IMG/VR virus record: IMGVR_UViG_2737471841_000005
Location: 1 to 22,828 of that record
Direction: 5' to 3' (one strand)
DNA: 22,828 nt
DNA from: a virus
Lineage: Duplodnaviria; Heunggongvirae; Uroviricota; Caudoviricetes
Positions 404 through 17,706 of the stretch are shown one piece after another; position 1 is the stretch's first letter; each line of letters begins with the position of its first letter. Position numbers and translations under genes: made by a program. Below the pieces are notes generated by a model. That model saw only the letters and a list, made by a program, of their open reading frames with translations. It had not been told where the DNA came from and did no database searches.

Positions 404-410
404 ATAAAAC

Positions 411-446
411 AAGGGGTTACGTGAAAACGTAGCCCCTTTTTCTTTG
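411..446 (+). terminator. Rho-independent terminator after ssrA
   Basis: Hairpin AAGGGGTTACG-TGAAAA-CGTAGCCCCTT followed by TTTCTTTGG. Confidence 0.8.
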
Positions 447-575
447 GTAGTGGCGGCAAAATGGCGATAGCCATGGACTAGGGTTGGGTACACCCACATT
501 GCTCTCTATCCTTATGAGTGATCGCACACACGCCTCTACTTTCAAGCTATATTCTAATCTCAATATGAGGCTACT

Positions 576-1289: not shown

Positions 1290-1366
1290 GTTATTATAGA
1301 ATAATTTTAAAAAATCATTTGCATTCTTCTTGTGTCAAAAATCAAATAACTGTCTCGATATTATTC

Positions 1367-1388
1367 AAAACCCGCCAGCGGCGGGTTA
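1367..1388 (-). terminator. Hairpin terminator downstream of ogr (possibly bidirectional)
   Basis: CCCGCC-AGC-GGCGGG stem-loop; on the minus strand it is followed by TTTT directly after the ogr stop. Confidence 0.55.
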
Positions 1389-1391
1389 GTA

Positions 1392-1607
1392 TCAGTAAAC
1401 TAATTGCTCCTGCATCCCTTTGGGATGCGGTGGGGCGGCACTGATTTTCTCGGGACGACAAACAGAACGAACAAAGGTTTCATGCGTTACAAACGTATGC
1501 CCACACTCAATATTAGTGCACTGATTGTAACGCTCTTTGGTTTGAGAGGAGACTTGAAAACTACTGCGAGTATGTGCGGCCTGACCACACAACGGACAAT
1601 TCATCAT
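1392..1607 (-). CDS. ogr: Ogr-type late transcription activator (C4 zinc finger)
   Basis: 71 aa, MMNCPLCGQAAH...CTNIECGHTF; Cys pattern and size as in P2 Ogr; located after gene D as in P2. Confidence 0.85.
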   Translation of the reverse strand: MMNCPLCGQAAHTRSSFQVSSQTKERYNQCTNIECGHTFVTHETFVRSVCRPEKISAAPPHPKGMQEQLVY

Positions 1608-1675
1608 TTATCAACTCTCCTCATCTTTGCTATATTTACAATAATGATACACCATTATTCAATATTGAGAACCAT

Positions 1676-2776
1676 TTATTCCATCTCAAGATCACCAATC
1701 CTCACTTCAAGCTCAAGACTGGTCGTAAAACCGTTATCCGGGCTGACGGTATGTGTCAGAGTCGTAATGGTCCATTCCGCATCATCTATCGGCTGTTTAA
1801 AGCCACTGACCTTCACAGGCATTTCTGTGTAGAGGTCTGCCCGCCCTTCCGCCAGTTGTAGCGAGAATGATGCAACGCCGCGTTGCAGGCGTTCCCACTG
1901 CATTTTCGCTGCCCGTTCGGCGTTGCTCCGGTTGGCATAAGTGCGATTAAGTACCAGCACGTTTTCATCCGTACCCACCAGATAATCGCCCTGCTTCGCT
2001 TCCGGCTCTTTCTTCTGCTTCTTAGTCTTGCGCTTACGCTTCACCGTAGTGCTTTCTTTCTTCGCGGGTTCGCGGGTATGCAACCAGCTGGCAATTACAC
2101 CCGTATAGGCTCCGCGATCTGCCAGGGTAAAGCGGTGACTGTCGCCGTCTTTACGTGTGATAGAGATCACCGGCAGTGGTTTACCGCTGGCGCTTTTGCC
2201 CTGTCCCTGCCGGATGAATAACAGATTGCCATTTTTCACCGACGCGATGGCACCGTACTGTCGCGCCAGCCGCATCAGAAAACTACCGTCACTCTCATTA
2301 GTCTGGTCTATATGCTCTACGAGCTTATCCGACAGGTCTTTACCCAGTGCCATCTTCAGCTTATGCCGCGAGGCTATTTCCTTCACCACTTCCCCGACGG
2401 TGGTCTTATGCCACGATTTTTCACGGCGGGTATTCAGCGTTTCCCGAAAATCAGCACTTCGCGCCCGGATAGTCAGGCGATCCGGTGCGCCAGTGTGTTC
2501 AATCTCGTCCACCGTGAATGCCCCTTTCGGGAAAAGCGGCTGCCCCTTCCAGCCCAGCGCCAGCGTGATGACCGCACCACGGCGCGGCAGCACGATTTTT
2601 CCGTCGGCGTCGTCCAGCTCCAGATCAAGCTGGTCTGCTTCAAAGCCCCGATTGTCCGTCAACGTCAGACTCATCAGGCGGTTATCCAGCACAGTGGTGA
2701 TATCCTTCCCCTCAATACTGATGCTGAATGCGGGAGTTTTGTTGCCTTTGTTAAGCAGTTCAGAGCTGAAATTCAC
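1676..2776 (-). CDS. D: Tail protein gpD (P2 late gene D family)
   Basis: 366-aa ORF, last gene of the FI-FII-E-T-U-D synteny; GTG start overlapping the gpU stop. Confidence 0.8.
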   Translation of the reverse strand: MNFSSELLNKGNKTPAFSISIEGKDITTVLDNRLMSLTLTDNRGFEADQLDLELDDADGKIVLPRRGAVITLALGWKGQPLFPKGAFTVDEIEHTGAPDRLTIRARSADFRETLNTRREKSWHKTTVGEVVKEIASRHKLKMALGKDLSDKLVEHIDQTNESDGSFLMRLARQYGAIASVKNGNLLFIRQGQGKSASGKPLPVISITRKDGDSHRFTLADRGAYTGVIASWLHTREPAKKESTTVKRKRKTKKQKKEPEAKQGDYLVGTDENVLVLNRTYANRSNAERAAKMQWERLQRGVASFSLQLAEGRADLYTEMPVKVSGFKQPIDDAEWTITTLTHTVSPDNGFTTSLELEVRIGDLEME

Positions 2777-3258
2777 GACAGCAGCCCTCCCACCGTTTTA
2801 CTGATATCGCTTAAGGCAGACGTTGCCGTGTCCTGCAGATTATTCAGTTGAGTACTGAGATCACCGAACATATCGGACAGGGATTCATCCACCCGTTTTA
2901 GCGAAAGGGTGAACTCAATCCTGCGCGGCATACCGTCGCGGAAAAACTCCGTTTTAGTCTGATTCAGTCCCTCAATCACATACATGCCGTAAATCGTGCC
3001 GCTGCCTTCAATCAGGGGCCATGCTTTCCCCTGTTCTGCCATCTGCTCCAGTGCCAGCAACGACAGCCTGCCGCCTGTTATCTCCGGCATAAGAACACCG
3101 GAAAGCGTCAGCATGTCGTTTTCCGGTCCCAGAAACTGCGTGGACGGACGACGGTTTACCCGGCTGTTTGCCGCATGTCGCCAGCTGCGTTGATACTGCA
3201 GTTCCTGATACGGAACGGTGCGCAGCATAAACACGTACAATCCCAGCACCATCATCAT
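2773..3258 (-). CDS. U: Tail protein gpU
   Basis: 161-aa ORF between tape measure and D, translationally coupled on both sides; P2 gpU size. Confidence 0.8.
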   Translation of the reverse strand: MMMVLGLYVFMLRTVPYQELQYQRSWRHAANSRVNRRPSTQFLGPENDMLTLSGVLMPEITGGRLSLLALEQMAEQGKAWPLIEGSGTIYGMYVIEGLNQTKTEFFRDGMPRRIEFTLSLKRVDESLSDMFGDLSTQLNNLQDTATSALSDISKTVGGLLS

Positions 3259-6200
3259 GCGTCGTATCCCCCCTGATCGCTGTAGTTACTCCTGGCTTTT
3301 GCCTTCAGCCTGCGTTCACGTTCATCAAGCTGGCGTGCCACCTCCCGCGCAATATCCTGCGCACTTTGTCCTGGCTGCGTCTGAATGATGATCTGCGTCG
3401 GTGCCTCAATCCGTTGAACGAGCGGCACAGTGGCTGCGCGACTCACAATTGCTTCTCCACCTTTCGCGGGAAGTGCCAAAGGGTGCAACGGTGGAAGCTC
3501 TGCTGGCGCGGCAGCAACGCCCATCATTCCGGCAACAACGGCAGCCAGTGCAGCTGTATTTCTCCGGCTGGTCACATTTGCCGGGCCGTTAACAATTTCC
3601 GGCCCGTTTTCACCGACGATGCCAAACTGCCCGCGCGGGATATACCCGCCGCTGTCATACATCCCCGCAAAGCCATATCCCCATGACGGAAAACCACCCG
3701 ATGGCATCATCACTTTACCGTCTGCATTCACCGTCGCAGGTTGCTGACGCGTCACGCTTTCCGGCAGTTTTGCCTTTGCGGCCTCTTTACTGACAATGCC
3801 AAGTTTCTCCAGCAACCAGGAAACGCCGGATTTCAGGGAGTCCAGCGGATGCATGACCATATTCAGCCCTTCCGCCAGTGCCTCTCCGAATCGCCGCCCC
3901 ATTGCCGCTGCACTCTGCAGTTCGGCAGAGGTCGACTTAACGGGCGTCAGCAGATCAGTAAACCAGCCCCACAGCGCCTGTACTTTGTCGCCAATCCACT
4001 GGAACACGGGCTTAAGCGGTTCGAATGCTGCACTGATGGGACCTGCCGCCGCTTTGAATCCTTCCACCACGCCACCAAGAAATGCGGTGATGGGTTGCCA
4101 GTATTTCCAGACAACCAGCGCCACGCCCGCCAGTGCAGTAACCACAAGACCTATCGGACTGAGCAGAGCACCTAACAGACCAGATACGGCATACAGGGCA
4201 ACGCGCAGCATCGCCAGTGGACCAGATGCCAGTACTCGCAGCACCGTGCCTGCGGCGACCAGTCCACCGCGCAGTACCGCCAGAGGATTCATAAACATCA
4301 CAGCAACAGCACGTAAACCGGATAATCCAGACCGCAAAAGTGCAACCGGCGCACCTGCTACAGTTTTCAGGACATTTCCCGTCAGTGATGCCGTGCGGCG
4401 CAAAGACGACAACGGCGCAGTAAGTAAACCTGCGGCGTTGCCCGATGAAGCAAGCCCGCGTCGCAGCAGTGCCAGTGGTGCGCCAGCCAACCAGGACAAC
4501 GCGCTGCTGGTTCGAGTTACTGCTGCCGTAACAGAAGGTAACGTTTTGATACCCAGCACAGAGAATCCCAGACGGATCACTGCCAGCGGCCCCAGCACTG
4601 CAGCCAGCGCCACCGCTAAGGTGCCGAGGCCTACTGTAACCGCAGCCACAACAGCCGCTACTTTCATCAGTGTGCCTGTCAGTTCCGGGTTAGCTTCCAC
4701 CCAGCGGCGCAACGCCCCCGTGATTCTTTTCACCGTGTACAGAATATCCATCAGCGGCTGGCGCAGCGTTTCGCCCAGGCTGCTGAAGGTGTTCTGCGCT
4801 CCGGTTTTGACCAGCAACCACTGAGCAGAAAGTGAGTCTTTGTTGATGTCGGATTCTTTCTGCATGGAACCGAGCGCATCATTGCCCGCTGTCAGTTTTA
4901 GCTGGCGCTGCAGTTCCGGAAGGTTGTTTGCCAGTTTCGCCGCGTCATCACCAAACTCTTTACCAAACAACATGGTCATGGCAGACAGACGCTTGTCCTG
5001 CGGCAGTGCGTTCACCTTCTCCAGCACACGCTGGATAGTTCCCATCGCATCCTTCGTCATCTGCTTTTCAATCACTTCAGGATTGAGTTTCAGCAGATTC
5101 ATCCCTTCAAAGAAACTCTTGCTTTGCATGGTGGCAATGGACAATTCACGCACCATCGCGTTTGCTGCACTGGCTGCAACCTCCGGCGCAGCGCCCAGTG
5201 TCAGAAAGGTGGAACCCAGTGCCGCCGCTTTACGATAATCCAGACGATCAGCCACACCGCCCAGGCGTTGCATGACATCAATGATGTCTGCCCCTTTCGA
5301 CATGGCGTTATCATCCAGATAGTTCAGCGCATCACCGAGCTGTTCAATATTGCGGGTAGGGATTTTGTAGAGCTGGGCGATTTTCCCCAGACTTTCTGAC
5401 AGTTCATCCGCTGGCAGCTCAAAGGCTGTTGCCGCCTTTGCTGCCGTGCTGGCGAAGGCCAGCAGATCACGTTTCTGGTCTTCCCAGCTGTCGTCAGGGT
5501 TTGCGACGTTCATGCGCGCCCCACCTTCAACCAGTGCAGCGAAGTCCACCGCACCGTTTTCCATCGGCAGCTGTTCGCTGGCAGCCTTGATGGCATCCTG
5601 CATTTCATAAAAACGCGCAGTGCGGTTGCCATTATCGTCACGCAGACCATTGACCTGCTTTGCCACACCTTTCATGGCATCTTCCATGCTGGTATAGCTT
5701 TTTACTGCCGCCATCACTGGCGCACCCATTGCCAGCCCTGCAGCCGTGGTAGTGGCTCCGGCTCCTGCGATGCGATCGCGCACTTCAAGCCGTCTTGAGT
5801 ATTGTTCTCTGGCAGCGTTCATCCGTGCCTGTTGTTCACCCAGACGTTTAAGTGCTCTTTGCTGGCCCTCCAGTGCCTGCCTTGTTTCTTCAGCATTTTT
5901 CTTAAGTTCTCGCTGGGCACTACTGAGTTGTCTGGTATCAATCCCTGATTCTTTAAGTGCCTGACGTTGTCTCTGGACCGCCCCCAACAAGCCGTTATAG
6001 GTCTGCTGAAGTTCCTGTACTCGTGTTTTGGCCTGACTGAATAACTTTGCCTGCGCGGCGGTTGGCCTGTTAGTGGCAGCAAATTGTGTGGCGAGTTTTG
6101 CCGCCTCTTCGCGGGCTGCGTTCAGGTTGTTGGCTGTTATGGCTAGTTGCGAGCGCGTCTTGCGAAATTCATCAATTCTGCCAGCCTGCTTATTCAGTTC

Positions 6201-6332
6201 TTTGAGGCTGTTTCGGGTATTCTGAATTGCGCCAGCCAGCTCTTTCGAACTGGCCTGTGCAGCACGGAATGGGCGGGTGAGTTTGTCAACCGTATTAAGA
6301 ATGACCTGCAGGCGCAGGTTATTATCACTCAT
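3255..6332 (-). CDS. T: Tail tape measure protein gpT
   Basis: 1025-aa ORF; N-terminal coiled-coil-like region, Ala/Gly/Leu-rich hydrophobic stretches, C-terminal domain; position after E/E' as in P2. Confidence 0.9.
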   Translation of the reverse strand: MSDNNLRLQVILNTVDKLTRPFRAAQASSKELAGAIQNTRNSLKELNKQAGRIDEFRKTRSQLAITANNLNAAREEAAKLATQFAATNRPTAAQAKLFSQAKTRVQELQQTYNGLLGAVQRQRQALKESGIDTRQLSSAQRELKKNAEETRQALEGQQRALKRLGEQQARMNAAREQYSRRLEVRDRIAGAGATTTAAGLAMGAPVMAAVKSYTSMEDAMKGVAKQVNGLRDDNGNRTARFYEMQDAIKAASEQLPMENGAVDFAALVEGGARMNVANPDDSWEDQKRDLLAFASTAAKAATAFELPADELSESLGKIAQLYKIPTRNIEQLGDALNYLDDNAMSKGADIIDVMQRLGGVADRLDYRKAAALGSTFLTLGAAPEVAASAANAMVRELSIATMQSKSFFEGMNLLKLNPEVIEKQMTKDAMGTIQRVLEKVNALPQDKRLSAMTMLFGKEFGDDAAKLANNLPELQRQLKLTAGNDALGSMQKESDINKDSLSAQWLLVKTGAQNTFSSLGETLRQPLMDILYTVKRITGALRRWVEANPELTGTLMKVAAVVAAVTVGLGTLAVALAAVLGPLAVIRLGFSVLGIKTLPSVTAAVTRTSSALSWLAGAPLALLRRGLASSGNAAGLLTAPLSSLRRTASLTGNVLKTVAGAPVALLRSGLSGLRAVAVMFMNPLAVLRGGLVAAGTVLRVLASGPLAMLRVALYAVSGLLGALLSPIGLVVTALAGVALVVWKYWQPITAFLGGVVEGFKAAAGPISAAFEPLKPVFQWIGDKVQALWGWFTDLLTPVKSTSAELQSAAAMGRRFGEALAEGLNMVMHPLDSLKSGVSWLLEKLGIVSKEAAKAKLPESVTRQQPATVNADGKVMMPSGGFPSWGYGFAGMYDSGGYIPRGQFGIVGENGPEIVNGPANVTSRRNTAALAAVVAGMMGVAAAPAELPPLHPLALPAKGGEAIVSRAATVPLVQRIEAPTQIIIQTQPGQSAQDIAREVARQLDERERRLKAKARSNYSDQGGYDA

Positions 6333-6761
6333 CGTTGGCCCCGCTTCTCTGAATCGCTTTATACCGCCATTCCAGCACTTCGGTCAGCGGCATAACGTCA
6401 GTAACGGATGGCGGCCAGTGAAAGATGGTGGCGATATCAGCCACCAGATCGTCAACCGTCAGGCTGTCGGTAAACCGGCAAGCACCGACTTCTTCAACAA
6501 AAAAGTGACAACCTCAACCGACATGGCAGTGAGATCTGCCGGGTCCATCTCTGCGATTTCCTGTGCAGTCAGTGCCGGACTGGAGATGCGGGGGATCACG
6601 GTCATCATCGCGTTCACATCCATATCCATAATGGCCTGCAGGCGTGTGCCGCGCAGCGCACCGGACTGCGGTTTACGCAGCACAATTTCGGTAATTTCTG
6701 TTTTACCGCGCATGATGGGAGTATCCAGTTTAATAGTCTTTTCAGTCTGCTTATCGCTCAT
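6325..6761 (-). CDS. E': gpE+E' fusion made by programmed -1 ribosomal frameshift at T TTT TTG (6498..6504)
   Basis: Slippery heptamer on the minus strand at codons 87-88 of E; the -1 frame stays open for 57 codons (VEEVGACRFTDSL...RSGANDE) and stops at TGA 6325..6327 overlapping the gpT start; about 145 aa total, as for P2 E+E'. Confidence 0.7.
6459..6761 (-). CDS. E: Tail assembly chaperone gpE (in-frame product)
   Basis: 100-aa ORF MSDKQTEKTIKLDTPIMRGK... between FII and T; carries a T TTT TTG slippery site near its 3' end. Confidence 0.85.
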   Translation of the reverse strand: MSDKQTEKTIKLDTPIMRGKTEITEIVLRKPQSGALRGTRLQAIMDMDVNAMMTVIPRISSPALTAQEIAEMDPADLTAMSVEVVTFLLKKSVLAGLPTA

Positions 6762-6815
6762 TTTGCTGTCCTGTAAATTGGGTTCTGGCGCGGCATTCCG
6801 CGCCGTTCAGATACA

Positions 6816-7331
6816 TCAGAGGCCGAGGGCGTTGCGGTGCGCTTCCATCAGGTCCACACCGTCCACAATTTCCACCATGTTGATAAGGTCCACTTCATAG
6901 AGCACCTCACCATTGATAGTCAGCTTCGCGTAGCTGTTGGTACTGGTCACTTTGGTGGTGTTGCTTTCGCCCGTCTTCCACTCGCCGGAATCCACTTCTT
7001 TGTGACGTCCACGCACCACAAGCTCCACGGCCTGCACTTCTCCGGTATCGTCACGCTGGATAGAGCCGGTGAAGCGCAACTGGATGCCATCCACCGTGGC
7101 TTTGCCCATCTGTTTAAACAGCAGCAGTTCAGTACCACCAATGGAAAATTCTGTGTCCAGCGCACTGTCATCAAGCCCCAGATCCACATCCACTGCACCC
7201 GGCATTCCGCCGCCGCGATACTTCTCATATTTGCGGGTGAATTTCGGCAGCGTCAGCGACTCAACGATCCCCTGCCAGTTGTTCCCGTCATTAAACAGGT
7301 TCAGGTGTTTTAATTTGCGTGGTAAAGCCAT
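6816..7331 (-). CDS. FII: Tail tube protein gpFII
   Basis: 171-aa ORF MALPRKLKHLNLFNDGNNWQG..., size and position as in P2 FII. Confidence 0.9.
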   Translation of the reverse strand: MALPRKLKHLNLFNDGNNWQGIVESLTLPKFTRKYEKYRGGGMPGAVDVDLGLDDSALDTEFSIGGTELLLFKQMGKATVDGIQLRFTGSIQRDDTGEVQAVELVVRGRHKEVDSGEWKTGESNTTKVTSTNSYAKLTINGEVLYEVDLINMVEIVDGVDLMEAHRNALGL

Positions 7332-7340
7332 GTTGTCCCC

Positions 7341-8513
7341 TTACGCGCTGACCTGGCTGGAGAAATTCACCAGGTACTGATCGGTGATGCGCTGACGCAG
7401 CATCAGGTTTTCAAGTGGCGGCACTGGCGTGTAGTCGTAGTCGATGGTGAGTTTTCCGGCTTTCAGCGTGTCTTTGTCGTTCACCGACTCATCCAGCCAG
7501 CAATCACCACCAATGAGATAGCCCTGACTGACCAGGCTGCGCATTTTGGCGCGGATACCCTCGATAATGTCGCGGGCCAGCGACGGGTTAAGCGGTTTAT
7601 CCACCGCCCACATGTGTGCTTCTGCCATCGTGTCCATCAGTACCTGCGCTGTACGGGTGTAGTTCTCGAAGGCAAAGAGCGGGTCATCACTCAGGCAGCG
7701 GGAACCCCAGAAGCGGAAACCATCCTTGCGCACAAGCGTGGTGACGTCGTTCTGGTTCAGCAGACCTGCATCGGTTGCCGGGTCCTGCAGATCCCAGAAC
7801 ACATCAGCAGAAATTCCGGTGACACCGTTCACGCCCACGTTGGACAGGCTTTTGTGCCATCCGGTCTGCTCATCAATTTTGGCGCGCAGACCGAGCGCAC
7901 GGGCGGTGGCATAAGCCGTTGCTTCGGCATTCAGCACCGTGTCCCAGCCAGTAAAGTCGGGCCAGATCAGCATTCCTTCACGCTGACTGAAGTTTTCACG
8001 GTAAGTGATCGCCTCCTGTACCGTCTTGCAGCCATACGCTGACAGGTAAGCAAACCCACGCAGGCTTTGCGCCACGCTCAGCAACTCAGTAGCTACCGCC
8101 TTGGTGTCGTGGCCTGGCACGCCGAGAATGCGCGGTTTAACGCCGAGCTGTGACTGGGCAGATAACAGGGCTTTCATACCTGTTTTTTTACCTTCAGCAG
8201 TCACTGCGCCGATGATATTGGTCGTGGTTTCGTCTTCCGTTTCACCCTGCGGCACACGCACAACAATGGTCACGGGTTTTGCCTGGTCAGCGATGGCATC
8301 CAGCGAACGGGCCAGAGTACCTGACTCACCCGCTTTACCGCTGGCAGTCAGCACATCAGTGATCAGCACGGGTTTATTAAGAGGAAACATTTTTGCATCG
8401 GCATCATCGCCCGTGCAGACCATACCCACGATGGCGGTGCTCACCGTGGTAATAGATCGGGTGCCTTCGTTGACTTCAACAACGCGCACCCCGTGGTGGT
8501 AATCCTGAGCCAT
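7341..8513 (-). CDS. FI: Contractile tail sheath protein gpFI
   Basis: 390-aa [22 protein letters not shown]..., first gene of the tail operon; AGGAGG RBS upstream. Confidence 0.9.
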
Positions 8514-8589
8514 AGTGGCGAACCTCCTGATTGGATTAGGCTTCGCCCTATGTTGAAGTGATTGTGCCTGACAAACAGCTAAGCGCAGT

Positions 8590-8607
8590 TGTGTCGTTAT
8601 TCACACA
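8590..8607 (-). promoter_or_regulatory. Candidate Ogr-dependent late promoter element (TGT-N12-ACA dyad) for the FI operon
   Basis: TGTGTCGTTATTCACACA dyad about 85 bp upstream of the FI start codon; matches the P2 late-promoter activator site pattern. Confidence 0.4.
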
Positions 8608-8655
8608 AAATAACGGTATTTGTCTGCTTGCAGGGATAATCAACATAATGCTGAT

Positions 8656-9228
8656 TCAGGGGGATTCATTGATCTTATTTGCCGGAAATTTTCTATAAAT
8701 GGTAGAAACGCCTACATCAAAAATCAGTGCAATACGCTGTCTTGATTCTCCGGCCTCGAGTAAACGCCCAATCTGTGCCCACTGTTCGGTGGTCAACTTA
8801 GGATGGCGTCCACCTACTCTGCCTTTGGCACGAGCTGCAGCCAGCCCTGCCCTGGTACGTTCAACTATCAGTTCGCGTTCCATTTCAGCCAGGGCACCCA
8901 TGACATGAAAAAAGAAACGGCCCATTGGGGTACTGGTATCAATACTGTCAGTCAGGCTTCTGAAATTCACACCACGCTGGCGCAACTCTTCTATCAGCGT
9001 AACAAGATGCCGCATACTGCGCCCCAACCTGTCCAGCTTCCAGACAACCAGCGTGTCTCCTGCCGATAGTGTCCTGAGTAGTTTTTTCAGCCCCGGTCTG
9101 TCGGACTTAGTGCCACTGATTTTGTCCTCAAAAATCTGCTCACATCCCGCGCAGTTCAGTGCATTACGTTGCAAATCGGTGTTCTGGTCATTTGTTGACA
9201 CGCGTACATAGCCAATAAGCATGATCAT
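8656..9228 (-). CDS. Serine DNA invertase, Pin/Gin/Cin/Hin family
   Basis: 190 aa, MLIGYVRVSTNDQNTDLQRNAL... with catalytic Ser motif and C-terminal HTH; likely true start at the MLIGY Met (9222). Confidence 0.9.
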   Translation of the reverse strand: MIMLIGYVRVSTNDQNTDLQRNALNCAGCEQIFEDKISGTKSDRPGLKKLLRTLSAGDTLVVWKLDRLGRSMRHLVTLIEELRQRGVNFRSLTDSIDTSTPMGRFFFHVMGALAEMERELIVERTRAGLAAARAKGRVGGRHPKLTTEQWAQIGRLLEAGESRQRIALIFDVGVSTIYRKFPANKINESP

Positions 9229-9276
9229 CCCCCTGAATAAAAACCGGAGATGATGCCAGTTAGCTGTTACCTCTGC

Positions 9277-9302
9277 ATTTTCTTAAACGTTGGTTTGGGA
9301 GA
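9277..9302. other. Invertase crossover site (gix/pix-like, 26 bp)
   Basis: Reverse complement TTCTCCCAAACC-AA-CGTTTAAGAAAA resembles the gix half-site TTATCCAAAACC with a central AA dinucleotide; about 50 bp upstream of the invertase start, as gixR is for gin. Confidence 0.55.
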
Positions 9303-9663
9303 AGCAGCGAAACGGGGTGTGGGAACAGGGGAAAATCAGATACCGGACATGGCTTCTTTTGCCAGTGGTGATGGATGGATGAAATTACCCAACGGTAAAA
9401 TTCTGCAATATGGTCGAGGTGAGGCTATGCCGAAATTATCGACGCAAACAATGAGGATTACATTTCCTATCCCTTTCCCTAAAAAAGCGGACTGCGCCAT
9501 TCTTACCCATTCTGGTGATGGCGGTGCGCCTTTAGGCGCTGGGCGAGGGTTCGTGATGACTGCAGAAGGCCCTACGTTAACCGGCTTTAATTCTGCTTAC
9601 AGAACGTCATCAACCAGCGACACGGTATCTATGCATTACAGTTGGTGGGCTGTTGGTGAGTAA
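9277..9663 (+). pseudogene. Orphan tail-fibre variable C-terminal segment (Sv'-like)
   Basis: Reading frame opens at the crossover site and runs away from the invertase; Gly/Ser/Thr-rich fibre-tip-like sequence; no constant N-terminal fibre part in the window. Confidence 0.45.
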
Positions 9664-9674
9664 TTTTATTCAGG

Positions 9675-9850
9675 GTGATTTATATGAACGAATATGTTTA
9701 TAGTGCCAAGCATAATGCTTTTTTCCCTGTGGATATGATTGATAAATATAAATCAGTAGGATGGGATTTATCAGATGCTAAGGAGGTGAATCAAAATATT
9801 GTCAGTGAGTTTATGGCTGAACCGCCACAAGGAAAAGTCCGTATTTCCGC
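9675..9850 (+). pseudogene. Tail-fibre assembly (Tfa/U'-like) gene, N-terminal fragment
   Basis: Starts MNEYVYSAKHNAFFPVDMIDKYKSVGW, resembling the N-terminus of phage tail-fibre assembly proteins; recognisable sequence stops after about 55 codons where the gpA-like gene overlaps on the other strand. Confidence 0.45.
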
Positions 9851-10951
9851 GATAAGCTCCAGACCTTTAACACAGACCATCATCTCATTGCGGCGATGCG
9901 CAGGGTTGCTGCTGCTGGCGTTTACCACATCTTCCATATCCAGCGTGTCGCCGTCTTCGTTCACCAGTTCATGAGAACGAAAAAACTCCAGCGACTTACG
10001 GCGCTGCTCACGTTTATGCATCACGGCTTCATAGCTGACATAGGGGGATGCTTTTTTGCTGACCAGGCAGACAGCACGCAACTGCTCTTCCCGCCATTCG
10101 CAACGCATCTTCCATAATTTCCGATACCACCAGTCGGCACACAACATACGCGCCAGCGAACCCGGAATGAGTTCATAGGGCACGGGTTTACGGCGGTTTC
10201 TTTTCCGACGGAGTTGCTCAAACGCAGGCGGAATAACATCCAGACGCAGGGTTTCCGCTGCCACCTTTTCCCATGTTTTGCGGATTTCTTCTGGCTTAAC
10301 GTCATCGGTGGCATACAAATCGCCACAAGCTGCATCAAGACACATGCTCATATGCGCAGCAACAAGGGTGGACAGGCGTTTCACCTGATCCTGACTCATT
10401 TCAGGCAGGATCAGCAGGCCGTCCAGCCCTTCATGGCTTGCCATAAAGCGAAAAGAAGTGGATAGCTGACTCTCGCGTACATGCTCCAGTCGTTCCAGAC
10501 ATGGCTTAATCGTCTCACGCAAATAGCGGGAATAAGCCTTTGGCCTGCCCAGGCTGCTGAAGTATTCAATACGTTGCATCAGCGGCTTGCTGATATGGGA
10601 AGGCTGGGCGTTGACGTCCGCCAGAATGACCATGTCTGGATTAAAACGCTGCTGCTCATGCGCCAGCTTTGCCCGGCTAATGAGCTTATCCTGCTCCATT
10701 TCGCGCTGGACAGGATCACGGGATTCATTAAAGAAATAACGCTCCCAGACCTGATCACTCAGTGCCTCGCGGCGCAGTTGTTCCTGCTCGTTATCGGCAG
10801 CGTACAGAGTGATCAGGTTTGAAAGCGCAGAAACCGGCGCAACTTCTGCCGGGTCCAGATAAGGGTTAATAGCCTTTTTCGGGCTGTCCCATGAGAATGC
10901 TGCGGCGGCCTCGTTAAAGCCGCTGCAGTTGTTCATATCAGCATGGCTCAT
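9791..10951 (-). pseudogene. gpA-like replication initiation protein, C-terminally truncated by a deletion
   Basis: 386-aa ORF coupled to dam upstream (ATGA overlap) in the gpA position; about half the length of P2/186 gpA and ends in non-conserved sequence overlapping the tfa fragment. Family call is by position and weak recall. Confidence 0.45.
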
Positions 10952-11805
10952 GCACGCACTCCGTACACGGCAGAACTATCCACGCCACGCGAAGGATCAA
11001 ATCCCACCCAGCAGCGCGCCCCAGAAACAGCGATGATTTCTGTTGCAGATTTACTCTCACCAGCTGCTACGCCGATGCTGCGTTTTGCCTTGATGTAGTG
11101 GTGAGTAAAATTGCGATACAGCGAACGGATCAGGGATGTGTCACTGTTAGAAACAATGACCGGATGTCCTTCTGATGACCGATGTTCAAGAACGGATGCC
11201 AGGTGATACTGGTCATCTTCAGTGAAGCCGTCAGTGTGATAACCGGAAAACGTGCCGTCATACGGCGGATCGCAATACACCACATCCCCCGCCTTCAACA
11301 TCGCCAGCGTTTCATCAAAGCTGGCGCAGATAAACGTTGCCCGCTGGGCTTTCTCTGCAAATGCGCGAATTTCTTTTTCAGGGAAATACGGATTTTTATA
11401 ATTACCGTAGGGAATGTTGAAATACCCGCTCTTGTTATAGCGACATAACCCACGGTAACCATGACGATTGAGATACAGAAAATATACCGCTTTCATGAAA
11501 TCAGTAATTTCAGTGGAGTAATTAAACTCCTGCCTTATGTTGTAATAAGCCACCTCCCTGTTTGCTTCCTCAAATAAAGCTCTGGCACGAGATATAAATG
11601 CCTCACAATCAGCAGCAACCTTTTTATAGAGGTTGATTAAATCAGGATTAATATCCGCAACAAGATAGCTGGGGTAATCCGTCTCCATCATCACAGCACA
11701 GGAACCCGCGAAAGGTTCAACCAGTCGCGGGCCAGCAGGAAGGTGTTTTTTCAGTTCGGACATAATGGCGGTTTTATTTCCCGCCCATTTCAGGATGGTG
11801 CTCAT
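10948..11805 (-). CDS. dam: DNA adenine methyltransferase (Dam-like, GATC N6-adenine MTase)
   Basis: [11 protein letters not shown]...LVEPFAGS...DPPY motifs as in E. coli Dam; GGAGGTG RBS 5 nt before the ATG at 11805; overlaps the TraR-like stop. Confidence 0.9.
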
Positions 11806-12029
11806 ACAGCACCTCCGTTGTAATGTTTGCCTTTCAGCTCTGCAATTTCCTGGCAGGTAATGCAAAGCTGCACACCCGGAATGGCACGGCGGCGTGCTGG
11901 CGGAATTGGCGCTTCACACTCAATGCAAAGCACGCGAGACACGCCCGGTGTTTTGGCACGGGCAGCACGGATATGGCGCTGGCGTTCTTCTTCAACGCGC
12001 TGCTGTACGAGATCCATTGCATCAGCCAT
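11802..12029 (-). CDS. TraR/DksA-family C4 zinc-finger protein
   Basis: 75 aa with CIECEAPIP...CITCQ Cys pairs; typical small P2-like early-region gene. Confidence 0.8.
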   Translation of the reverse strand: MADAMDLVQQRVEEERQRHIRAARAKTPGVSRVLCIECEAPIPPARRRAIPGVQLCITCQEIAELKGKHYNGGAV

Positions 12030-12268
12030 TAGTGGATCTCCTGCGCTTCGTTCTGGATTGCTTCAGCAGTCACACGCAGCAGTTCTGCCGCTTCCACGTG
12101 GTTTAGCTGACGGGATGAGATATGACACGCCAGGCTATCAAGGCGAGCTGCCATTGCTTCAGCCCTTGCCCGGCGTTCTTCCAGACGAGCCTCTGTCAGT
12201 AAAATATTAAGCCCTGCATCATCCGGTCCGGTTTTAGTCATGAGGATTTCAATATTACGCATAATCAA
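12029..12268 (-). CDS. Hypothetical phage early-region protein
   Basis: 79-aa ORF in the early operon, tightly packed with neighbours; no family recognised. Confidence 0.5.
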   Translation of the reverse strand: MIMRNIEILMTKTGPDDAGLNILLTEARLEERRARAEAMAARLDSLACHISSRQLNHVEAAELLRVTAEAIQNEAQEIH

Positions 12269-12329
12269 TTCTCCTGAATTTAGATAAAGGGATGCTCGGC
12301 GGGTTTACGCCATTAATTTCATTAGTTGG

Positions 12330-12671
12330 TTAATTCGGCATGGTTAGCCGTCTGGGAAATAAGCTCACCACTGCACGAAAATGATTCATTGCTTTAATCA
12401 ACTCCCGCTTTTCGTCAGTGGTCAGCTCATTGATGCTGATGCTATGACGTTCAGCCGGAATTTTTGCCATAAAGAATATGGCTGCCAGTGCTCGTTTATT
12501 TTGTTCGTTATTGATATCCCGTGGATCACGCATATCTTTAATAAACCGCTCAAGCTCTGACTCAATATTCAGGCCAAAAACTTTCGCCCTTAATTCCGCT
12601 ATGTGATTAAGTCCATTCAGGCGTTCACCGGGGCTTAATGGAACAGTCGCCGCAGCGCCTTCAATAGCCAT
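12330..12671 (-). CDS. Hypothetical phage early-region protein
   Basis: 113-aa ORF in the early operon; no family recognised. Confidence 0.5.
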   Translation of the reverse strand: MAIEGAAATVPLSPGERLNGLNHIAELRAKVFGLNIESELERFIKDMRDPRDINNEQNKRALAAIFFMAKIPAERHSISINELTTDEKRELIKAMNHFRAVVSLFPRRLTMPN

Positions 12672-12835
12672 TTGTTCCCCCGTTTTTTCGTAGATAGTTC
12701 TGCCAGCAATTCATCTTGTGAACGGCACGGATGCCAGCGTTTACCATCCTCACCCATGATCCAGCCGTGACCGTAGTGCATTGCCGGACTTTGTTTTACC
12801 AGCAGCGATGCAAATGATGGTTCTTTCGTCAGCAT
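12635..12835 (-). CDS. Hypothetical small phage protein
   Basis: ORF downstream of cII; likely start at the internal Met (MLTKEP), avoiding overlap with cII. Confidence 0.4.
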   Translation of the reverse strand: MLTKEPSFASLLVKQSPAMHYGHGWIMGEDGKRWHPCRSQDELLAELSTKKRGNKWLLKALRRLFH

Positions 12836-12842
12836 AAGCACC

Positions 12843-13352
12843 TCACAGCAAACCGAATGAAGCACCGAGGCCGGTTACAGTATCAACTGCACTTGCCATC
12901 GCAGGATTAACCTGTAAACGGGCCTGCAATGAAACAGCAGCTAACGCCATCAGTCGTGTAACAGAGTTAATGCTGCTGATAGCATCACGACGACCTGCAC
13001 TGGTTTTTACATCGCCAGATACCGCACCTGCAGCAACACGCCCGATCTCTGCGGTTGCACTCATGACGTAATGTGGCAGTTTCTCTTTTGCCACCTCATT
13101 AATCGGTACACATGGCAGGCAGTGAATCTGTGCCAGAAAACCGTCTACCAGCGTTGAATCTTCCGTCAGATCGGTAAGTAGCCAGATATCTGGCGCATTG
13201 AGCTGATGCGGTTGATCTGGGTTGAGTTTGTTTCGCAGAGTCTGGACATTCATTCCTGAACGTTCTGCCAGCTTCGCCATATTGTGACGAAGTGCAAAAG
13301 CTCTACAGGCTTCATCAAAATGCGGGTGTTTGGAAATCTTATAATCAAACAT
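12843..13352 (-). CDS. cII: 186-type CII lysogeny-establishment regulator
   Basis: 169 aa, MFDYKISKHPHFDEACRAFALRHNMAKLAE...; size and second position in the rightward operon match coliphage 186 CII. Confidence 0.7.
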   Translation of the reverse strand: MFDYKISKHPHFDEACRAFALRHNMAKLAERSGMNVQTLRNKLNPDQPHQLNAPDIWLLTDLTEDSTLVDGFLAQIHCLPCVPINEVAKEKLPHYVMSATAEIGRVAAGAVSGDVKTSAGRRDAISSINSVTRLMALAAVSLQARLQVNPAMASAVDTVTGLGASFGLL

Positions 13353-13384
13353 GCTACCCCCTTAGAAAGTTCTCATAATTGAAC

Positions 13385-13627
13385 TTACTTACCAACAATG
13401 ACGCGGAAGTTGGAATGACCGAGGGATTCACGGACCTGATCGGTTTTGTACATTAAATAACGCAGGCTTACGCGGCCTTTGTTTTTTTCTTTCTTGACCA
13501 TGTATTTAGCAAGCTGACCATGATGAATTTTTTGATACACAGAGCCGCGGGAGATACCTTCCCATTCCGCGAACTCTGCAGGCGTAGCCATCTCTTTTGG
13601 TACACGAATTGAAATATCAGTGCTCAT
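13385..13627 (-). CDS. apl: Apl/Cox-type excisionase and transcriptional regulator
   Basis: 80-aa basic HTH protein, first gene of the lytic operon, divergent from cI; GGAG RBS upstream. Confidence 0.7.
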   Translation of the reverse strand: MSTDISIRVPKEMATPAEFAEWEGISRGSVYQKIHHGQLAKYMVKKEKNKGRVSLRYLMYKTDQVRESLGHSNFRVIVGK

Positions 13628-13685
13628 AGTGCAGTATCTCCCGATTAAGGTTTGGTTTACGTCGTTTTATCTCGTTTTACTTGAT

Positions 13686-13729
13686 TCAATATTTGATACA
13701 TCGAGATACTACGATCCAATATTTGATAC
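13686..13729. repeat. Two 13-14-bp direct repeats (CAATATTTGATAC) spaced 30 bp apart, bracketing the pR -10; candidate CI operators
   Basis: Copies at 13686..13699 and 13716..13729; second tandem pair TCGTTTTA at 13662..13669 and 13672..13679. Confidence 0.45.
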
Positions 13730-13734
13730 GTCAA
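13706..13734 (-). promoter_or_regulatory. Candidate lytic promoter pR for apl-cII (-35 TTGACG, 17-bp spacer, -10 TAGTAT)
   Basis: Minus-strand hexamers at 13729..13734 and 13706..13711 with 17-bp spacing, about 75 bp upstream of the apl ATG. Confidence 0.55.
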
Positions 13735-13746
13735 CAGGATTAAAAA

Positions 13747-14379
13747 ATGATACAGGTAAAGGTTGGAGAGAATACAGGGGGAAGAGAGGCTATCCATAGA
13801 CTAATGGCAGCCTATGATTTCAAGTCCAGACAGCAACTTTGCGATCACTTAGGCGCATCAAAAAGCACCATGGCAAACAGATACTTAAGAGATAGTTTTC
13901 CTGCAGAGTGGGTGATTCAGTGCGCCTTGGAAACAGGAGTTTCTTTACTGTGGCTAACCACCGGACAGGGGGAGCCAGGTCCAAACATTGAACCTAAAAA
14001 AAATATCAATTCCGTGAACTCCAGCAAGGTTGTACCTCTTTCTGAACTAGTATCTCCTGAAATTGACAAGGCGACTCTCAACGGTGGTTTATTGGTCGAT
14101 GCTGGAAAAGCAATCATTGATAGCAGCATACTCCCCTCAGACTCAAGCAACCTACTGCTGGTGACTACTTCTGGTGATTCTTATTTAATAGATCGCAACC
14201 AAACACCACCAGTAAATGGTATGTGGTTAGTCGATATTGACGGGATAAAAAGCATTGTTAAATTGACTCGACTTCCGGGAAACAAATTAGTAGTGCATCA
14301 GGATGATTCATCGTTTGAGTGTGGCCTAGATGACATTGAGGTAGTAGGCCGCGCACTGAAAATCATTAAGAGCCTTTGA
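13747..14379 (+). CDS. cI: 186-type CI immunity repressor
   Basis: 210 aa; N-terminal HTH region with ...CALETGVSLLWLTTGQGEP resembling 186 CI; immediately precedes int on the same strand. Confidence 0.8.
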   Translation: MIQVKVGENTGGREAIHRLMAAYDFKSRQQLCDHLGASKSTMANRYLRDSFPAEWVIQCALETGVSLLWLTTGQGEPGPNIEPKKNINSVNSSKVVPLSELVSPEIDKATLNGGLLVDAGKAIIDSSILPSDSSNLLLVTTSGDSYLIDRNQTPPVNGMWLVDIDGIKSIVKLTRLPGNKLVVHQDDSSFECGLDDIEVVGRALKIIKSL

Positions 14380-14380
14380 T

Positions 14381-15397
14381 ATGACCATCAGAAAACAGCC
14401 GAACGGAAAATGGTTGTGTGAGTGCTATCCCAATGGACGCAATGGTAAGCGCGTGCGTAAGCAATTTGCTACGAAAGGCGAAGCCATTGCTTTTGAAAGC
14501 TTCACAATGGAAGAAGTGAATAAAAAACCGTGGTTGGGTGAAAAGGATGATCGGCGACGCCTATCAGAATTAATTGAGCTTTGGTATTCCCTGTATGGTC
14601 AGACACTCGCAGACCCCAAGCGCCTCATGGCGAAACTTAGAATTATCTGTAATGGTCTAGGCGACCCCATCGCCTCAGAACTGACAGCCGGTGACTTTAC
14701 GAAATACCGCGAAGCACGATTAAAAGGTGACGTTCGTAACGAAGACGGCACACTAATGTCGCCAGTAAAACCACGCACGGTGAATCTTGAGCAACGTAAC
14801 CTATCATCGGTTTTCGGCACATTGAAAAAACTAGGCCACTGGTCAGCACCAAATCCTCTCGCCGGGCTGCCAACATTTAAAATCGCTGAGGGGGAACTGG
14901 CGTTCCTGACCTCGGAAGAAATTAAACGTCTGCTAGATGCCTGCGCTGATTCTCAAAACCCCAGTCTGCTTTTGATTGCAAAAATATGCCTGGCCACCGG
15001 CGCACGCTGGAGTGAAGCTGAAAACCTGCAGGGCCATCAGTTATCTAAATACCGCATCACTTATACCAAGACGAAGGGTAAGAAAAACCGCACCGTGCCG
15101 ATATCTCAAGATCTGTATGACGAACTCCCCAAGAACAGAGGGAAGCTATTCACCCCGTGCAGAAAAGCCTTTGAACGAGCAGTAAAGCGAGCTGGCATCG
15201 AGCTGCCAGAGGGCCAATGCACTCACGTGCTACGTCATACATTCGCCAGCCATTTTATGATGAATGGCGGAAACATACTGGTGCTGCGCGATATTCTGGG
15301 CCATGCCGATATAAAAATGACGATGATTTACGCCCACTTTTCGCCCGATCACCTTGAAGATGCGGTAACTAAAAACCCTTTATGCAACTTAAGATAG
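14381..15397 (+). CDS. int: Tyrosine integrase, P2/186 family
   Basis: 338 aa; N-terminus like P2 Int (PNGRNGKRVRKQFATKGEAIAFE), catalytic ...TGARWSEA..., HVLRHTFASHFMMNGG and MIYAHF (R-H-R-Y). Confidence 0.92.
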   Translation: MTIRKQPNGKWLCECYPNGRNGKRVRKQFATKGEAIAFESFTMEEVNKKPWLGEKDDRRRLSELIELWYSLYGQTLADPKRLMAKLRIICNGLGDPIASELTAGDFTKYREARLKGDVRNEDGTLMSPVKPRTVNLEQRNLSSVFGTLKKLGHWSAPNPLAGLPTFKIAEGELAFLTSEEIKRLLDACADSQNPSLLLIAKICLATGARWSEAENLQGHQLSKYRITYTKTKGKKNRTVPISQDLYDELPKNRGKLFTPCRKAFERAVKRAGIELPEGQCTHVLRHTFASHFMMNGGNILVLRDILGHADIKMTMIYAHFSPDHLEDAVTKNPLCNLR

Positions 15398-15713
15398 AGT
15401 AACTTATGAAAACAAACTCAAACTATTTACAAATATAATATTCAGCAGGTTATCCATTCTCATTTAACTCTTCAGACTGAGTTTAGGTTTTATTTATAGA
15501 ATAAGATAATTTTTACATCACAAAAAAACATATAAGCCCTCATCTTTGTTGTATAAAAACATCAAAGATGCCACATTCAAAAATAGTAGAAAAGCATAGC
15601 ATTGCAACATTAAAAAGAAACCAATAAAAAACAGTCATTAGAAAATGAAAAAAACAAAAACATTTTTTATCGAAGCTTCAGTCTGACTACTAGTTTGACT
15701 CTGCAATTAACTT

Positions 15714-15745
15714 TCAAGATGATCAATATTTATTGATCATCTTGA
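15714..15745. repeat. Near-perfect 32-bp palindrome (15-bp arms, TT centre) with two GATC sites
   Basis: TCAAGATGATCAATAT-TT-ATTGATCATCTTGA; lies about 30 bp past the 3' end of the deaminase gene in the AT-rich int/cargo spacer. Confidence 0.7.
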
Positions 15746-15777
15746 AGCTTACCTCAGGAAGGATGAGTATAATATTT

Positions 15778-17511
15778 CTACTCAAGGAGATATTCTAACT
15801 CATCTTTTATCGGGATAATTTGCTCATAAAGTCGGTGATATGACTTCCCAATTGCGCCTCTAAATTGTATTAACTTTGGTGGCTTACTACCTATATTAAT
15901 AATATGGTCTTGAGCTATACCTGGGTAGGGATCAATAAATACAATTTCAGATATACCTAACTGATAAGCTTTTTTCGCACACAACTCACAGGGACTGGCA
16001 GTTGTATACAACTTCCCCCCCAGAACGCCAATACCACCATATTTTGCAAGTTGTAAAAATGCGTTTTCCTCAGCATGTAATGCACGTGTATGAACTTGAT
16101 TACCTTTTTTCTCTTTATCAAGATCATTATGTATATCTTTAAAACAATAAGATAAGTTCCTGCCTCTATAAATATCACCAGTTTTATCTATCGCCCTAAA
16201 ATTTAAGAGTTTCTCATTAGCTTTAATTCTGAAAGAACTATTATTTCTCTCATAATGACTGTACGTTTTTTCATCAAAATCGTTCATTAGGCCATCTAGA
16301 GATCTCATAGAGCAAGGAATCTGACCGTTGGCAACATCATTCCAACCAACTGATTTTATTGAATTATCACCATCAGTTACTACAGCTCCCACCTGTCTAG
16401 ATATACAGCCAGAGTTTAATTTTACCGTATACGCAACTTGCATAACCCTTTCCATTGCAGTAGGTGTTATCAGACCAGGATGCTTCATCAGTGCGATGTA
16501 CCACGCTAATTGTGCTTTTAAAATATTGTCATTATCAAATTCATTTTTTGGGTTAAAAATGTGTATATCTGATAGTTCAATACATTTAGTTACATTTGGA
16601 TTGGTGAGATGTTTGTAAGAGTTATCACCTTTACCTGACTCTACAGAATCTATTTCCTCTATCTGCTTTTCTGAAAACTTATGTAGTTTCCGCAAATAGT
16701 TTGTTCGATGTTCATCTGGGGCATTTATTGACATTAAATGAAATGCAGAATATCTATCCTTAAAAAATTTTGCCTCATATGGATTTCTAATAGCATCTAT
16801 GACAATTAATGCGTTATCTCTTTTGCTTTTTCTTATTAATTTAATAACCCTATTAATAGTTTCCGGCAAATGAAAAACAGATTTAGGCATAAACTCTTTA
16901 TCTTCAAAATCGACTTCAATACGCCCACGACGTCTAATTGACTTACCTGCTAACTGATAGGCTGAAACATATAAATTTGAGTTTATCTCATTTAGTTCAG
17001 CTTTGAATTCTTTAGTAAATTTTCTAACTAACTTCAAAATTGATATAAATTTATTAATCGTTTTTTCATCAAGCTTCAATTCACTATTATGATCAAGCAA
17101 ATTCTCAATTACATTTTTAAATCTTGTCAAAATGAGATTATCTGAGAATACACCAAAAGTTAATACAATATCTAAATGCTCTTTACTGATAAATTTATTA
17201 GATGATAGAATGAATTCAGAAGCTTCCTCAACTGTTAACATCAGAAGATACGCTGAGATTAGGTCACTCACCTTAATTGAGTAAAAATTTTCCCAGTGAT
17301 TTTCTGCGAATTTTTTAACTATATTATAACGATGGACATCCAATCCCTTGTAAAACCCCTGTAATTTACTTACATCAGGGAAGACTGTTTTTTCGTTTTC
17401 AAGAATATTAGCTGTTGTTGTGCAACCAGAACCAGTTCGACCTGTCAAACCGACTAAAATAAACTGCCCATTTTCAAGGAAAAGCTCACTAACGAATTTT
17501 TTTTCTTTCAT
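15778..17511 (-). CDS. P-loop kinase-like / cytidine-dCMP deaminase fusion protein (AvcD/Dcd-type anti-phage candidate)
   Basis: 577 aa from ATG 17511 (GTG at 17514 in the track); N-terminal P-loop-like VGLTGRTGSGCTT, C-terminal zinc deaminase motifs HAEENA (around 16075) and PCELCAKK (around 15990); strongly AT-rich; sits between int and attR. Confidence 0.85.
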   Translation of the reverse strand: MKEKKFVSELFLENGQFILVGLTGRTGSGCTTTANILENEKTVFPDVSKLQGFYKGLDVHRYNIVKKFAENHWENFYSIKVSDLISAYLLMLTVEEASEFILSSNKFISKEHLDIVLTFGVFSDNLILTRFKNVIENLLDHNSELKLDEKTINKFISILKLVRKFTKEFKAELNEINSNLYVSAYQLAGKSIRRRGRIEVDFEDKEFMPKSVFHLPETINRVIKLIRKSKRDNALIVIDAIRNPYEAKFFKDRYSAFHLMSINAPDEHRTNYLRKLHKFSEKQIEEIDSVESGKGDNSYKHLTNPNVTKCIELSDIHIFNPKNEFDNDNILKAQLAWYIALMKHPGLITPTAMERVMQVAYTVKLNSGCISRQVGAVVTDGDNSIKSVGWNDVANGQIPCSMRSLDGLMNDFDEKTYSHYERNNSSFRIKANEKLLNFRAIDKTGDIYRGRNLSYCFKDIHNDLDKEKKGNQVHTRALHAEENAFLQLAKYGGIGVLGGKLYTTASPCELCAKKAYQLGISEIVFIDPYPGIAQDHIINIGSKPPKLIQFRGAIGKSYHRLYEQIIPIKDELEYLLE

Positions 17512-17706
17512 CACGTCCCACTTATGAATGCAAGAACAATTAGCATATTAATTATAATTTATTAACTAATTTTATTCTAGATGCTTGATGTAATGGCGGC
17601 ACTTTGGCGGCAGAGCATTAAAAACGCGTAAGACGAGCAAATACAAAATAACACTAACACATTGTTTTCAAACATAATCTACTGTTTTTACTATAATAAA
17701 AATGGT

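Follow-up and report, generated by a model that had tools for sequence, protein, structure and literature searches.

The window, as we call the whole 22,828-nucleotide (nt) stretch of IMG/VR virus record IMGVR_UViG_2737471841_000005 that was analysed, carries on its minus strand an avcD/dcd gene for an anti-phage dCTP deaminase, in which a glycine-rich loop near the N-terminus has a cysteine where a Walker A lysine would be expected. The main features of this locus are collected in Table 1. The ATG at 17511 is the start that the NCBI Prokaryotic Genome Annotation Pipeline (PGAP) uses for the same gene in other Escherichia coli genomes, giving a 1734-nt coding sequence. The same gene (at least 96.7% DNA identity over at least 80% of a 2161-nt query) was found in 20 of 5426 complete genomes, and PGAP labels it 'anti-phage dCTP deaminase' there.

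The family assignment comes from three models. The NCBIfam equivalog NF041025 ('anti-phage dCTP deaminase') matches from amino acid (aa) 18 to 570 with 425.4 bits, against a curated cut-off of 400, the PADLOC dCTPase model matches with an E value of 1.1e-145, and Pfam places a zinc-binding cytidine/dCMP deaminase domain at aa 354-526. The sequence-only reading had taken the protein for an AvcD/Dcd-type deaminase, and all three models agree with it. The deaminase motifs are intact, with HAEE at 16066-16077 (aa 480-483) and PCELC at 15979-15993 (aa 508-512), and the protein has the two-domain layout of a P-loop kinase-like N-domain joined to a zinc deaminase C-domain in more than 350 aa. On sequence grounds, the gene is a member of the AvcD/DCD nucleotide-depletion defence family.

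A widespread database entry that is 99% identical to the window protein (P0005, with 527 member sequences) has only 499 aa. It begins at aa 80 (IKVS...), which leaves out the P-loop, and a mis-called start or a frameshift is the probable cause. The ETEC1731 gene, named only 'deoxycytidylate deaminase', matches over 1733 nt of the 1734-nt query, which would fit a frameshifted copy.

Table 1. Coordinates of the avcD/dcd gene, its domains and motifs, and the adjoining prophage features in the window
Feature	Position	Strand	Remarks
avcD/dcd, anti-phage dCTP deaminase	15778..17511	-	577 aa from ATG; in-frame GTG at 17514 gives 578 aa
N-terminal P-loop kinase-like domain, aa 1-345	16480..17514	-	Large helical insertion at about aa 90-235
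C-terminal zinc-dependent cytidine/dCMP deaminase domain, aa 354-526	15937..16455	-	
P-loop / Walker A equivalent, GLTGRTGSGCTT	17416..17451	-	Translation; profile alignment to GxxGxGSGK[ST] of dephospho-CoA kinases and SSO1041; model
TGC codon, Cys at the Walker A lysine position	17424..17422	-	GCA on the plus strand at 17422-17424
KSIRRRG segment with invariant R194 and G197 (family NIRxSG motif)	16924..16944	-	Helix 181-196 of the model
Walker B-like strand and DxxR motif, LIVIDAIRNPYE	16774..16809	-	D240, R243 and P245 invariant in profile A3; aligned to LVVFDGVRSLAEVEE of 3lw7
Allele-specific 5' leader and presumed avcD promoter	17512..17591	-	About 80 nt; alignment of three alleles at the same prophage site
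attR, perfect 46-nt copy of the ssrA 3' end	17707..17752	+	attL copy at 358-403; direct repeat D3

The Cys-containing loop

The sequence-only reading had placed a P-loop motif at 17416-17451, with a TGC codon for Cys in place of the Walker A Lys. These coordinates are right and the strand is minus: read on that strand, the interval translates to GLTGRTGSGCTT near the N-terminus of the avcD open reading frame (ORF), as aa 22-33 of the 578-aa ORF from the GTG at 17514 or aa 21-32 from the ATG at 17511, and the TGC codon is seen in this translation. Reading the same interval on the plus strand gives CCATRTSSTCQT, an unrelated peptide with no P-loop. The Cys is C31 in GTG numbering and C30 in ATG numbering, and the Gly-Cys pair is G29-C30 in ATG numbering. 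The residue numbers C31, R194, G197, D240, R243, C311, D316 and N321 are given in GTG numbering.

To place the loop in a known fold we used profile comparisons and a structure model. Searching the Protein Data Bank (PDB) with the single sequence of the N-domain returned noise only and no kinase match. A profile of 18 N-domains that are 25-40% identical to the window N-domain (A3) has marginal similarity to kinases in the PDB (E about 2e-3). Its stretch viGLTGrtGsGCttvakiL aligns with VILITGMPGSGKSEFAKLL (3lw7/3h0k), with VIGVTGKIGTGKSTVCEIL (2grj), with IIGITGNIGSGKSTVAALL (1uf9) and with IVGLTGGIGSGKTTIANL (1jjv), and in each of these alignments the C falls on the Walker A K. Further along, the profile segment LIVIDalRnPyE aligns with LVVFDGVRSLAE of 3lw7, such that the invariant LIVID240 lies on LVVFD of that structure and the hhhhD pattern of a Walker B strand is present. 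An AlphaFold2 model made with 37 homologues has a mean predicted local distance difference test score (pLDDT) of 76, with N-domain blocks mostly at 85-94, and around the motif it shows a strand at residues 20-24, a loop at 25-30 and a helix from residue 31, which is the classical beta1 - P-loop - alpha1 order. Because the profile alignments put the C on the Walker A K and the model shows this order of elements, the Cys loop is almost certainly the Walker A equivalent of AvcD/DCD proteins and, from the conservation described below, a signature of the family.

The remainder of the nucleotide site is kept. N-domain residues that are invariant at the 25-40% identity covered by A3 comprise G22, T24, G25, G28, G30, C31, L38, F77 and R194, together with G197, D240, R243, P245, F258, D316, N321 and L342. 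The glycine-rich loop, the Ser/Thr after the Cys, the Walker B D240 and the arginines R194, R243 and R270 are all retained, and the KSIRRRG segment is a candidate LID arginine site.

The protein has no canonical Walker A motif GxxxxGK[ST] with its catalytic Lys. A P-loop elsewhere in the protein would have removed the grounds for the earlier assignment, and no canonical Walker A motif was found elsewhere in it: the sole GKS, at aa 190-192, is predicted to be part of a helix, and divergent homologues do not conserve its K or its S. Candidates for a relocated lysine also failed. K81 is invariant in close homologues and variable at 25-40% identity, K191 is not conserved in A3, and R26, which lies in the loop, is R or K in 117 of 138 representatives and so is not invariant. 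A metal site made of Cys31, C311 and H318 was rejected as well, as H318 is not conserved and C311 is kept in natural variants that do not have Cys31.

The Cys ranks among the best-conserved residues of the family, and its conservation was followed at several depths. Among close homologues (best database matches, 58-89% identity) it is present in 115 of 115. For a divergent set, an exhaustive HMMER search with the N-domain gave 662 matches at E <= 1e-3, from which the best 150 were taken; among these, the cluster representatives with 27-57% identity that cover the loop have Cys in 135 of 138, Ser in two, Val in one and Lys in none. The loci from species-representative genomes, which span Gammaproteobacteria, Betaproteobacteria, Cyanobacteria, Bacillota, Bacteroidota, Chloroflexi, Nitrospirae and Desulfobacterota, encode Cys in 77 of 77, by TGT in 50 and by TGC in 27. 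Across the family the consensus reads G-L-T-G-R-T-G-S-G-C-[ST]-T. Six E. coli alleles with a DNA identity of only about 67-74% have the 12-residue motif unchanged and most of its codons synonymously changed, the Cys being either TGC or TGT.

This conservation, together with the synonymous codon turnover, excludes a one-off mutation, a pseudogene or a sequencing error. The nucleotide-site constellation is under selection as a whole, the Cys included, and the alignments show the Cys to be a selected, family-wide replacement of the Walker A lysine. An alignment of homologues had been proposed as the check on the motif, and it finds the Cys kept across the family and no examined relative with Lys; the suggestion of a divergent subfamily gains strong support in the sense that Cys is the family-wide state. 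Two of the three non-Cys representatives (P0257 and P0258; Ser or Val) have the motif GLCGKTGSG[SV], with a Cys at the position of Thr24. This could be a relocated thiol or a coincidence, these being only two, related sequences.

Every long relative that was checked keeps the kinase-like and deaminase core together, including TIR-fused, caspase-fused and C-terminally extended forms. Two distant relatives (P0229, P0238) have an N-terminal TIR domain ahead of the Cys-P-loop kinase-like and deaminase core, another (P0222) has a caspase (Peptidase_C14) domain at that place, and other distant relatives of about 800 aa have a C-terminal extension of about 250 aa without domain assignment. Deposited phage genomes gave no full-length relative, only dCMP deaminase domains. 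The 'cytidine deaminase' of Burkholderia phage phiE094 (MW072790.1 / NC_055911.1; H102/H103) matches aa 237-529 only, at 27% identity, from the Walker B strand on, and may be a shorter relative without the P-loop.

Prophage setting and leader region

The avcD gene is carried by a degraded P2-like prophage that has ssrA as its insertion site. The tmRNA gene (ssrA) occupies 40-402, and the element between the repeats of its 3' end, 404-17706, measures 17.3 kb. Among its genes are those for P2-type tail proteins, a DNA invertase, a Dam-type methylase, CII, CI and an integrase (int), and no head or terminase genes were seen in it, unlike the intact prophage of strain 47-1826 (L001). Its replication nickase appears truncated, with an ORF of only 386 aa that corresponds to positions 16-336 in a PHROG profile of 852 positions. 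The avcD gene is the last gene of the prophage, between int and attR. Other avcD alleles, only 72-74% identical in DNA, occupy the same site in intact P2-like prophages, and further alleles were found in an integrative and conjugative element, in a recombinase island at dusC and in a tRNA-Phe island. Hotspots of antiviral systems are a known feature of P2-like phages (PMC9122126).

An RNA encoded immediately upstream of the Vibrio cholerae gene, 152-174 nt long and in the same orientation, inhibits the enzyme post-translationally (AvcI/DifV; Hsueh et al., bioRxiv 10.1101/2021.03.31.437871), and we looked for a counterpart in the window. When three alleles are aligned, the conserved phage arm upstream of avcD ends at ...TGCCGCCATT and the alleles diverge from there; the allele-specific leader left by this boundary is too short to hold an AvcI-type RNA of 150-170 nt. 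Rfam gave no match to an AvcI RNA in the upstream region, where it matched only an ssrA fragment, and the 201-nt upstream stretch folds no better than shuffled sequences (z 0.34). From one system to another, AvcI RNAs lack sequence conservation (Hsueh et al., bioRxiv 10.1101/2021.03.31.437871), and the nulls at this locus are therefore no proof of absence. Just inside attR, at 17594-17613, there are two direct copies of TGCCGCCA with 4-nt spacing (on the plus strand TGGCGGCA ... TGGCGGCA). This repeat is kept in all three P2-type alleles and conservation stops right after it; the copies are probably integrase arm-type sites that mark the boundary of the avcD cargo cassette.

Other observations concern the neighbourhood of the gene. 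The 380 nt between the int stop and the avcD stop (15398-15777) contain no ORF of at least 50 aa, whereas this gap is only 10-14 nt in other alleles at the same site (L003, L004); its sole Rfam match is sub-threshold, to a microRNA family, and was taken as chance. Directly inside attL, a 237-aa ORF (576-1289, plus strand) has no Pfam or PHROG match; lying at the opposite end of the prophage from avcD, it is possibly cargo, perhaps a defence gene. A second direct repeat of 67 nt (398-464 and 21924-21990, 94% identical) has one copy starting at the end of ssrA and the other 4 kb past attR, which suggests an older boundary of an ssrA island and tandem insertions at this site. Between attR and the far copy of that repeat lie fragments of the ypjA autotransporter and a recombinase remnant: the adhesin-like autotransporter ypjA/ehaD at 18267-21301 (minus strand) is broken into ORFs of 330, 700 and 108 aa, and related genomes annotate it as a pseudogene.

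Role of the lysine-less loop

The literature surveyed does not explain the role of the kinase-like domain in AvcD/DCD enzymes, and the survey of the Cys sharpens this question with a constraint: nearly every family member has Cys for the Walker A Lys, the other parts of the nucleotide site are retained, and the domain always occurs with the deaminase. In a P-loop kinase, the Walker A Lys contacts and neutralises the beta and gamma phosphates and is needed for catalysis, and the backbone amides of the loop do most of the phosphate binding. Because the Lys serves transfer and the loop backbone binds phosphate, nucleotide binding without classical phosphotransfer is the most economical reading of a loop that has lost only the Lys.

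Published mutants show that the loop is essential, not what it does, and the sensor or regulator role that the sequence-only reading suggested for the domain, in place of catalysis, is a putative one. In the E. coli AW1.7 enzyme (576 aa), T7 infection leads to depletion of dCTP, dCDP and dCMP and to a rise of dUMP, and the double mutant G29A+C30A abolishes both defence and dCTP depletion (Tal et al., bioRxiv 10.1101/2021.04.26.441389). This enzyme is 72% identical to the window protein. In V. cholerae DcdV/AvcD, the Walker A variant S52K and the Walker B variant D162A+Q163A abolish filamentation and depletion of the dC pool, and these variants are stable and as abundant as the wild type (Hsueh et al., bioRxiv 10.1101/2021.03.31.437871). 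S52 is given here in V. cholerae numbering.

From the published close relatives, we would expect that on infection the enzyme deaminates dCTP, dCDP and dCMP to deoxyuridine nucleotides and that the emptied dCTP pool stalls phage DNA replication, both domains being required. The P-loop site would still bind the phosphate part of a (deoxy)nucleotide, which may be the dCTP substrate or an effector, and no classical lysine-assisted phosphotransfer would take place there; occupancy or integrity of this site would be needed for the fused deaminase to be active. The N-domain would in this way be a pseudokinase-like module that binds nucleotide and has an obligatory coupling to the deaminase. Taken as a whole, the P-loop of a kinase-like N-domain in a prophage-borne AvcD/DCD enzyme, serving as a binding-only module, is the best explanation we have and a probable one. 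The particular mechanism in which the loop binds but does not transfer is our interpretation of these data, and we put it forward as a serious but tentative proposal.

Several points weigh against a binding-only module. Neither Tal et al. nor Hsueh et al. report a binding or enzymatic assay of the isolated N-domain, and the published mutant is a double one (G29A+C30A), so that the effect of the Cys is not separated from that of the adjacent Gly. The near-absolute retention of Cys, and not of any small residue, hints at a chemical role beyond the loss of Lys. At the same time, the three non-Cys representatives keep HAE/PCxxC, and the Cys is therefore not absolutely indispensable.

The N-domain might instead be a structural or oligomerisation scaffold with a P-loop that binds nothing, the Cys being kept for packing at the start of helix 1. 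Activity is lost in each of the loop mutants (G29A+C30A, S52K), and misfolding would fit this too, although the V. cholerae variants are as abundant as the wild type. dCMP deaminases act as oligomers, which speaks for a scaffold, as does the finding that no full-length relative checked has the kinase-like domain without the deaminase. Packing alone, however, would not need a Gly-rich loop, the Ser/Thr, D240, R243 and R194 to be invariant at 25-40% identity, and we consider a scaffold that binds no nucleotide unlikely.

A further alternative makes the Cys a catalytic nucleophile. The N-domain would then be a P-loop enzyme of an unusual kind, such as a dNTP phosphohydrolase or pyrophosphatase acting by a phosphocysteine or a thiol-assisted step, that converts dCTP/dUTP to monophosphates in concert with the deaminase. 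The retention of Cys itself in 98-100% of relatives, and not merely of a residue other than Lys, would suit such chemistry, and so would the invariant Walker B Asp and the several invariant arginines, as in an active site. It would also suit such chemistry that dUMP rises and not dUTP, which vanishes when the wild-type enzyme is expressed; both papers (Tal et al.; Hsueh et al.) ascribe the rise of dUMP to the host dUTPase. The natural Ser and Val variants with intact deaminase motifs count against a nucleophile. More broadly, a chemically active Cys is conceivable because Cys is kept across many phyla and is never replaced by Lys and almost never by Ala, Ser or Gly; the domain would in that case be a new P-loop module with a thiol (a phosphocysteine or thiol-assisted hydrolase, or a thiol switch that gates the deaminase) and not a dead kinase. 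To our knowledge, a nucleophilic Cys at this position of a P-loop has no precedent, and both the catalytic thiol and the wider idea of an active Cys seem to us distinctly improbable.

Were the Cys instead a regulatory thiol, working as a redox switch or through covalent modification, it would hold a toxin-like deaminase off until infection. The enzyme must be inactive before infection, and with an 80-nt leader too short for an AvcI-sized RNA gene some other control would be needed; the domain also has a second near-invariant Cys, C311. This residue is kept in the natural non-Cys31 variants, so the two do not co-vary, the nearby H318 is not conserved, which speaks against a metal site, and no redox control was reported by Tal et al. 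or Hsueh et al., all of which leaves this explanation with little to recommend it. Least probable of all, to the point that we give it hardly any weight, is that the lysine-less P-loop is a docking site for the phosphate backbone of an inhibitory AvcI-type RNA, for although AvcI acts on AvcD post-translationally and AvcI-insensitive substitutions in V. cholerae map partly to the kinase-like domain (E123K, A126T and K201R), the residues concerned lie on the surface and not in the P-loop, Walker A mutants have lost activity and are not constitutively active, and no AvcI candidate is detectable at the window locus.

Comparison with known systems

The window gene reveals no new system. The gene, its family, the Cys-containing loop and the essentiality of that loop are already known, and the gene is annotated by PGAP; the Cys loop is the signature of a known defence family that has been studied experimentally. 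A C-to-A mutant had been proposed as a test of the motif and has in part been published: the double mutant G29A+C30A includes this Cys. The chemistry of a lysine-less loop is the remaining question of interest. Depletion of dCTP and phage defence have been shown for the relatives from AW1.7 and V. cholerae and are predicted for the window allele. No solved or published AvcD structure was found.

The nearest studied relative is the AW1.7 protein (WP_045268677.1), the 72% identity extending over the full length. It has an identical GLTGRTGSGCTT, in which G29 and C30 carry the same numbers as the Gly-Cys of the window motif, and it shares the two-domain architecture and the HAE/PCxxC motifs. The two differ in their setting, which is an island adjoining tRNA-Phe in AW1.7 and the int-attR end of a P2-like prophage at ssrA in the window. 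A homologue from ETEC H10407 was not found by DNA search of E. coli genomes.

The V. cholerae AvcD/DcdV protein (532 aa) is much more divergent from the window protein. Like it, the V. cholerae enzyme joins a P-loop kinase-like N-domain to a Zn deaminase C-domain, both of which are needed for depletion of the dC pool, and defends against phage by nucleotide depletion. The spacing of HAEE and PCELC matches that of H382/E384/C411/C414 in V. cholerae, and the distance from E to C is equal (E384/C411 in V. cholerae, E482/C509 in the window protein). The V. cholerae sequence itself (VC0175) did not occur in the lists of homologues, representatives and genome loci, and the three non-Cys representatives, whose clusters are unnamed, do not fit the V. 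cholerae S52 numbering.

Beyond the family, each domain has its own relatives. In its fold as well as in its catalytic and zinc motifs, the C-domain agrees with the dCMP deaminases of T4 (Cd, 1vq2), S. mutans (2hvv) and cyanophage S-TIM5 (4p9c) and with the bifunctional dCMP/dCTP deaminase of PBCV-1 (7fh4), which are single-domain enzymes without a kinase-like domain. AvcD is without the dCTP/dTTP allosteric site of the classical dCMP deaminases (Hsueh et al., bioRxiv 10.1101/2021.03.31.437871). The N-domain is closest to dephospho-CoA kinase (CoaE) and to the archaeal UPF0200, AdkA-like SSO1041 (3lw7, 3h0k, 2grj, 1uf9, 1jjv), with which it shares the P-loop pattern G-[LIV]-T-G-x-x-G-S-G-x-[ST]-T, a Walker B hhhhD followed by an Arg, and a C-terminal D...N motif. 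These proteins differ from it in having the canonical Lys and in being without the helical insertion of about 145 aa and the fused deaminase.

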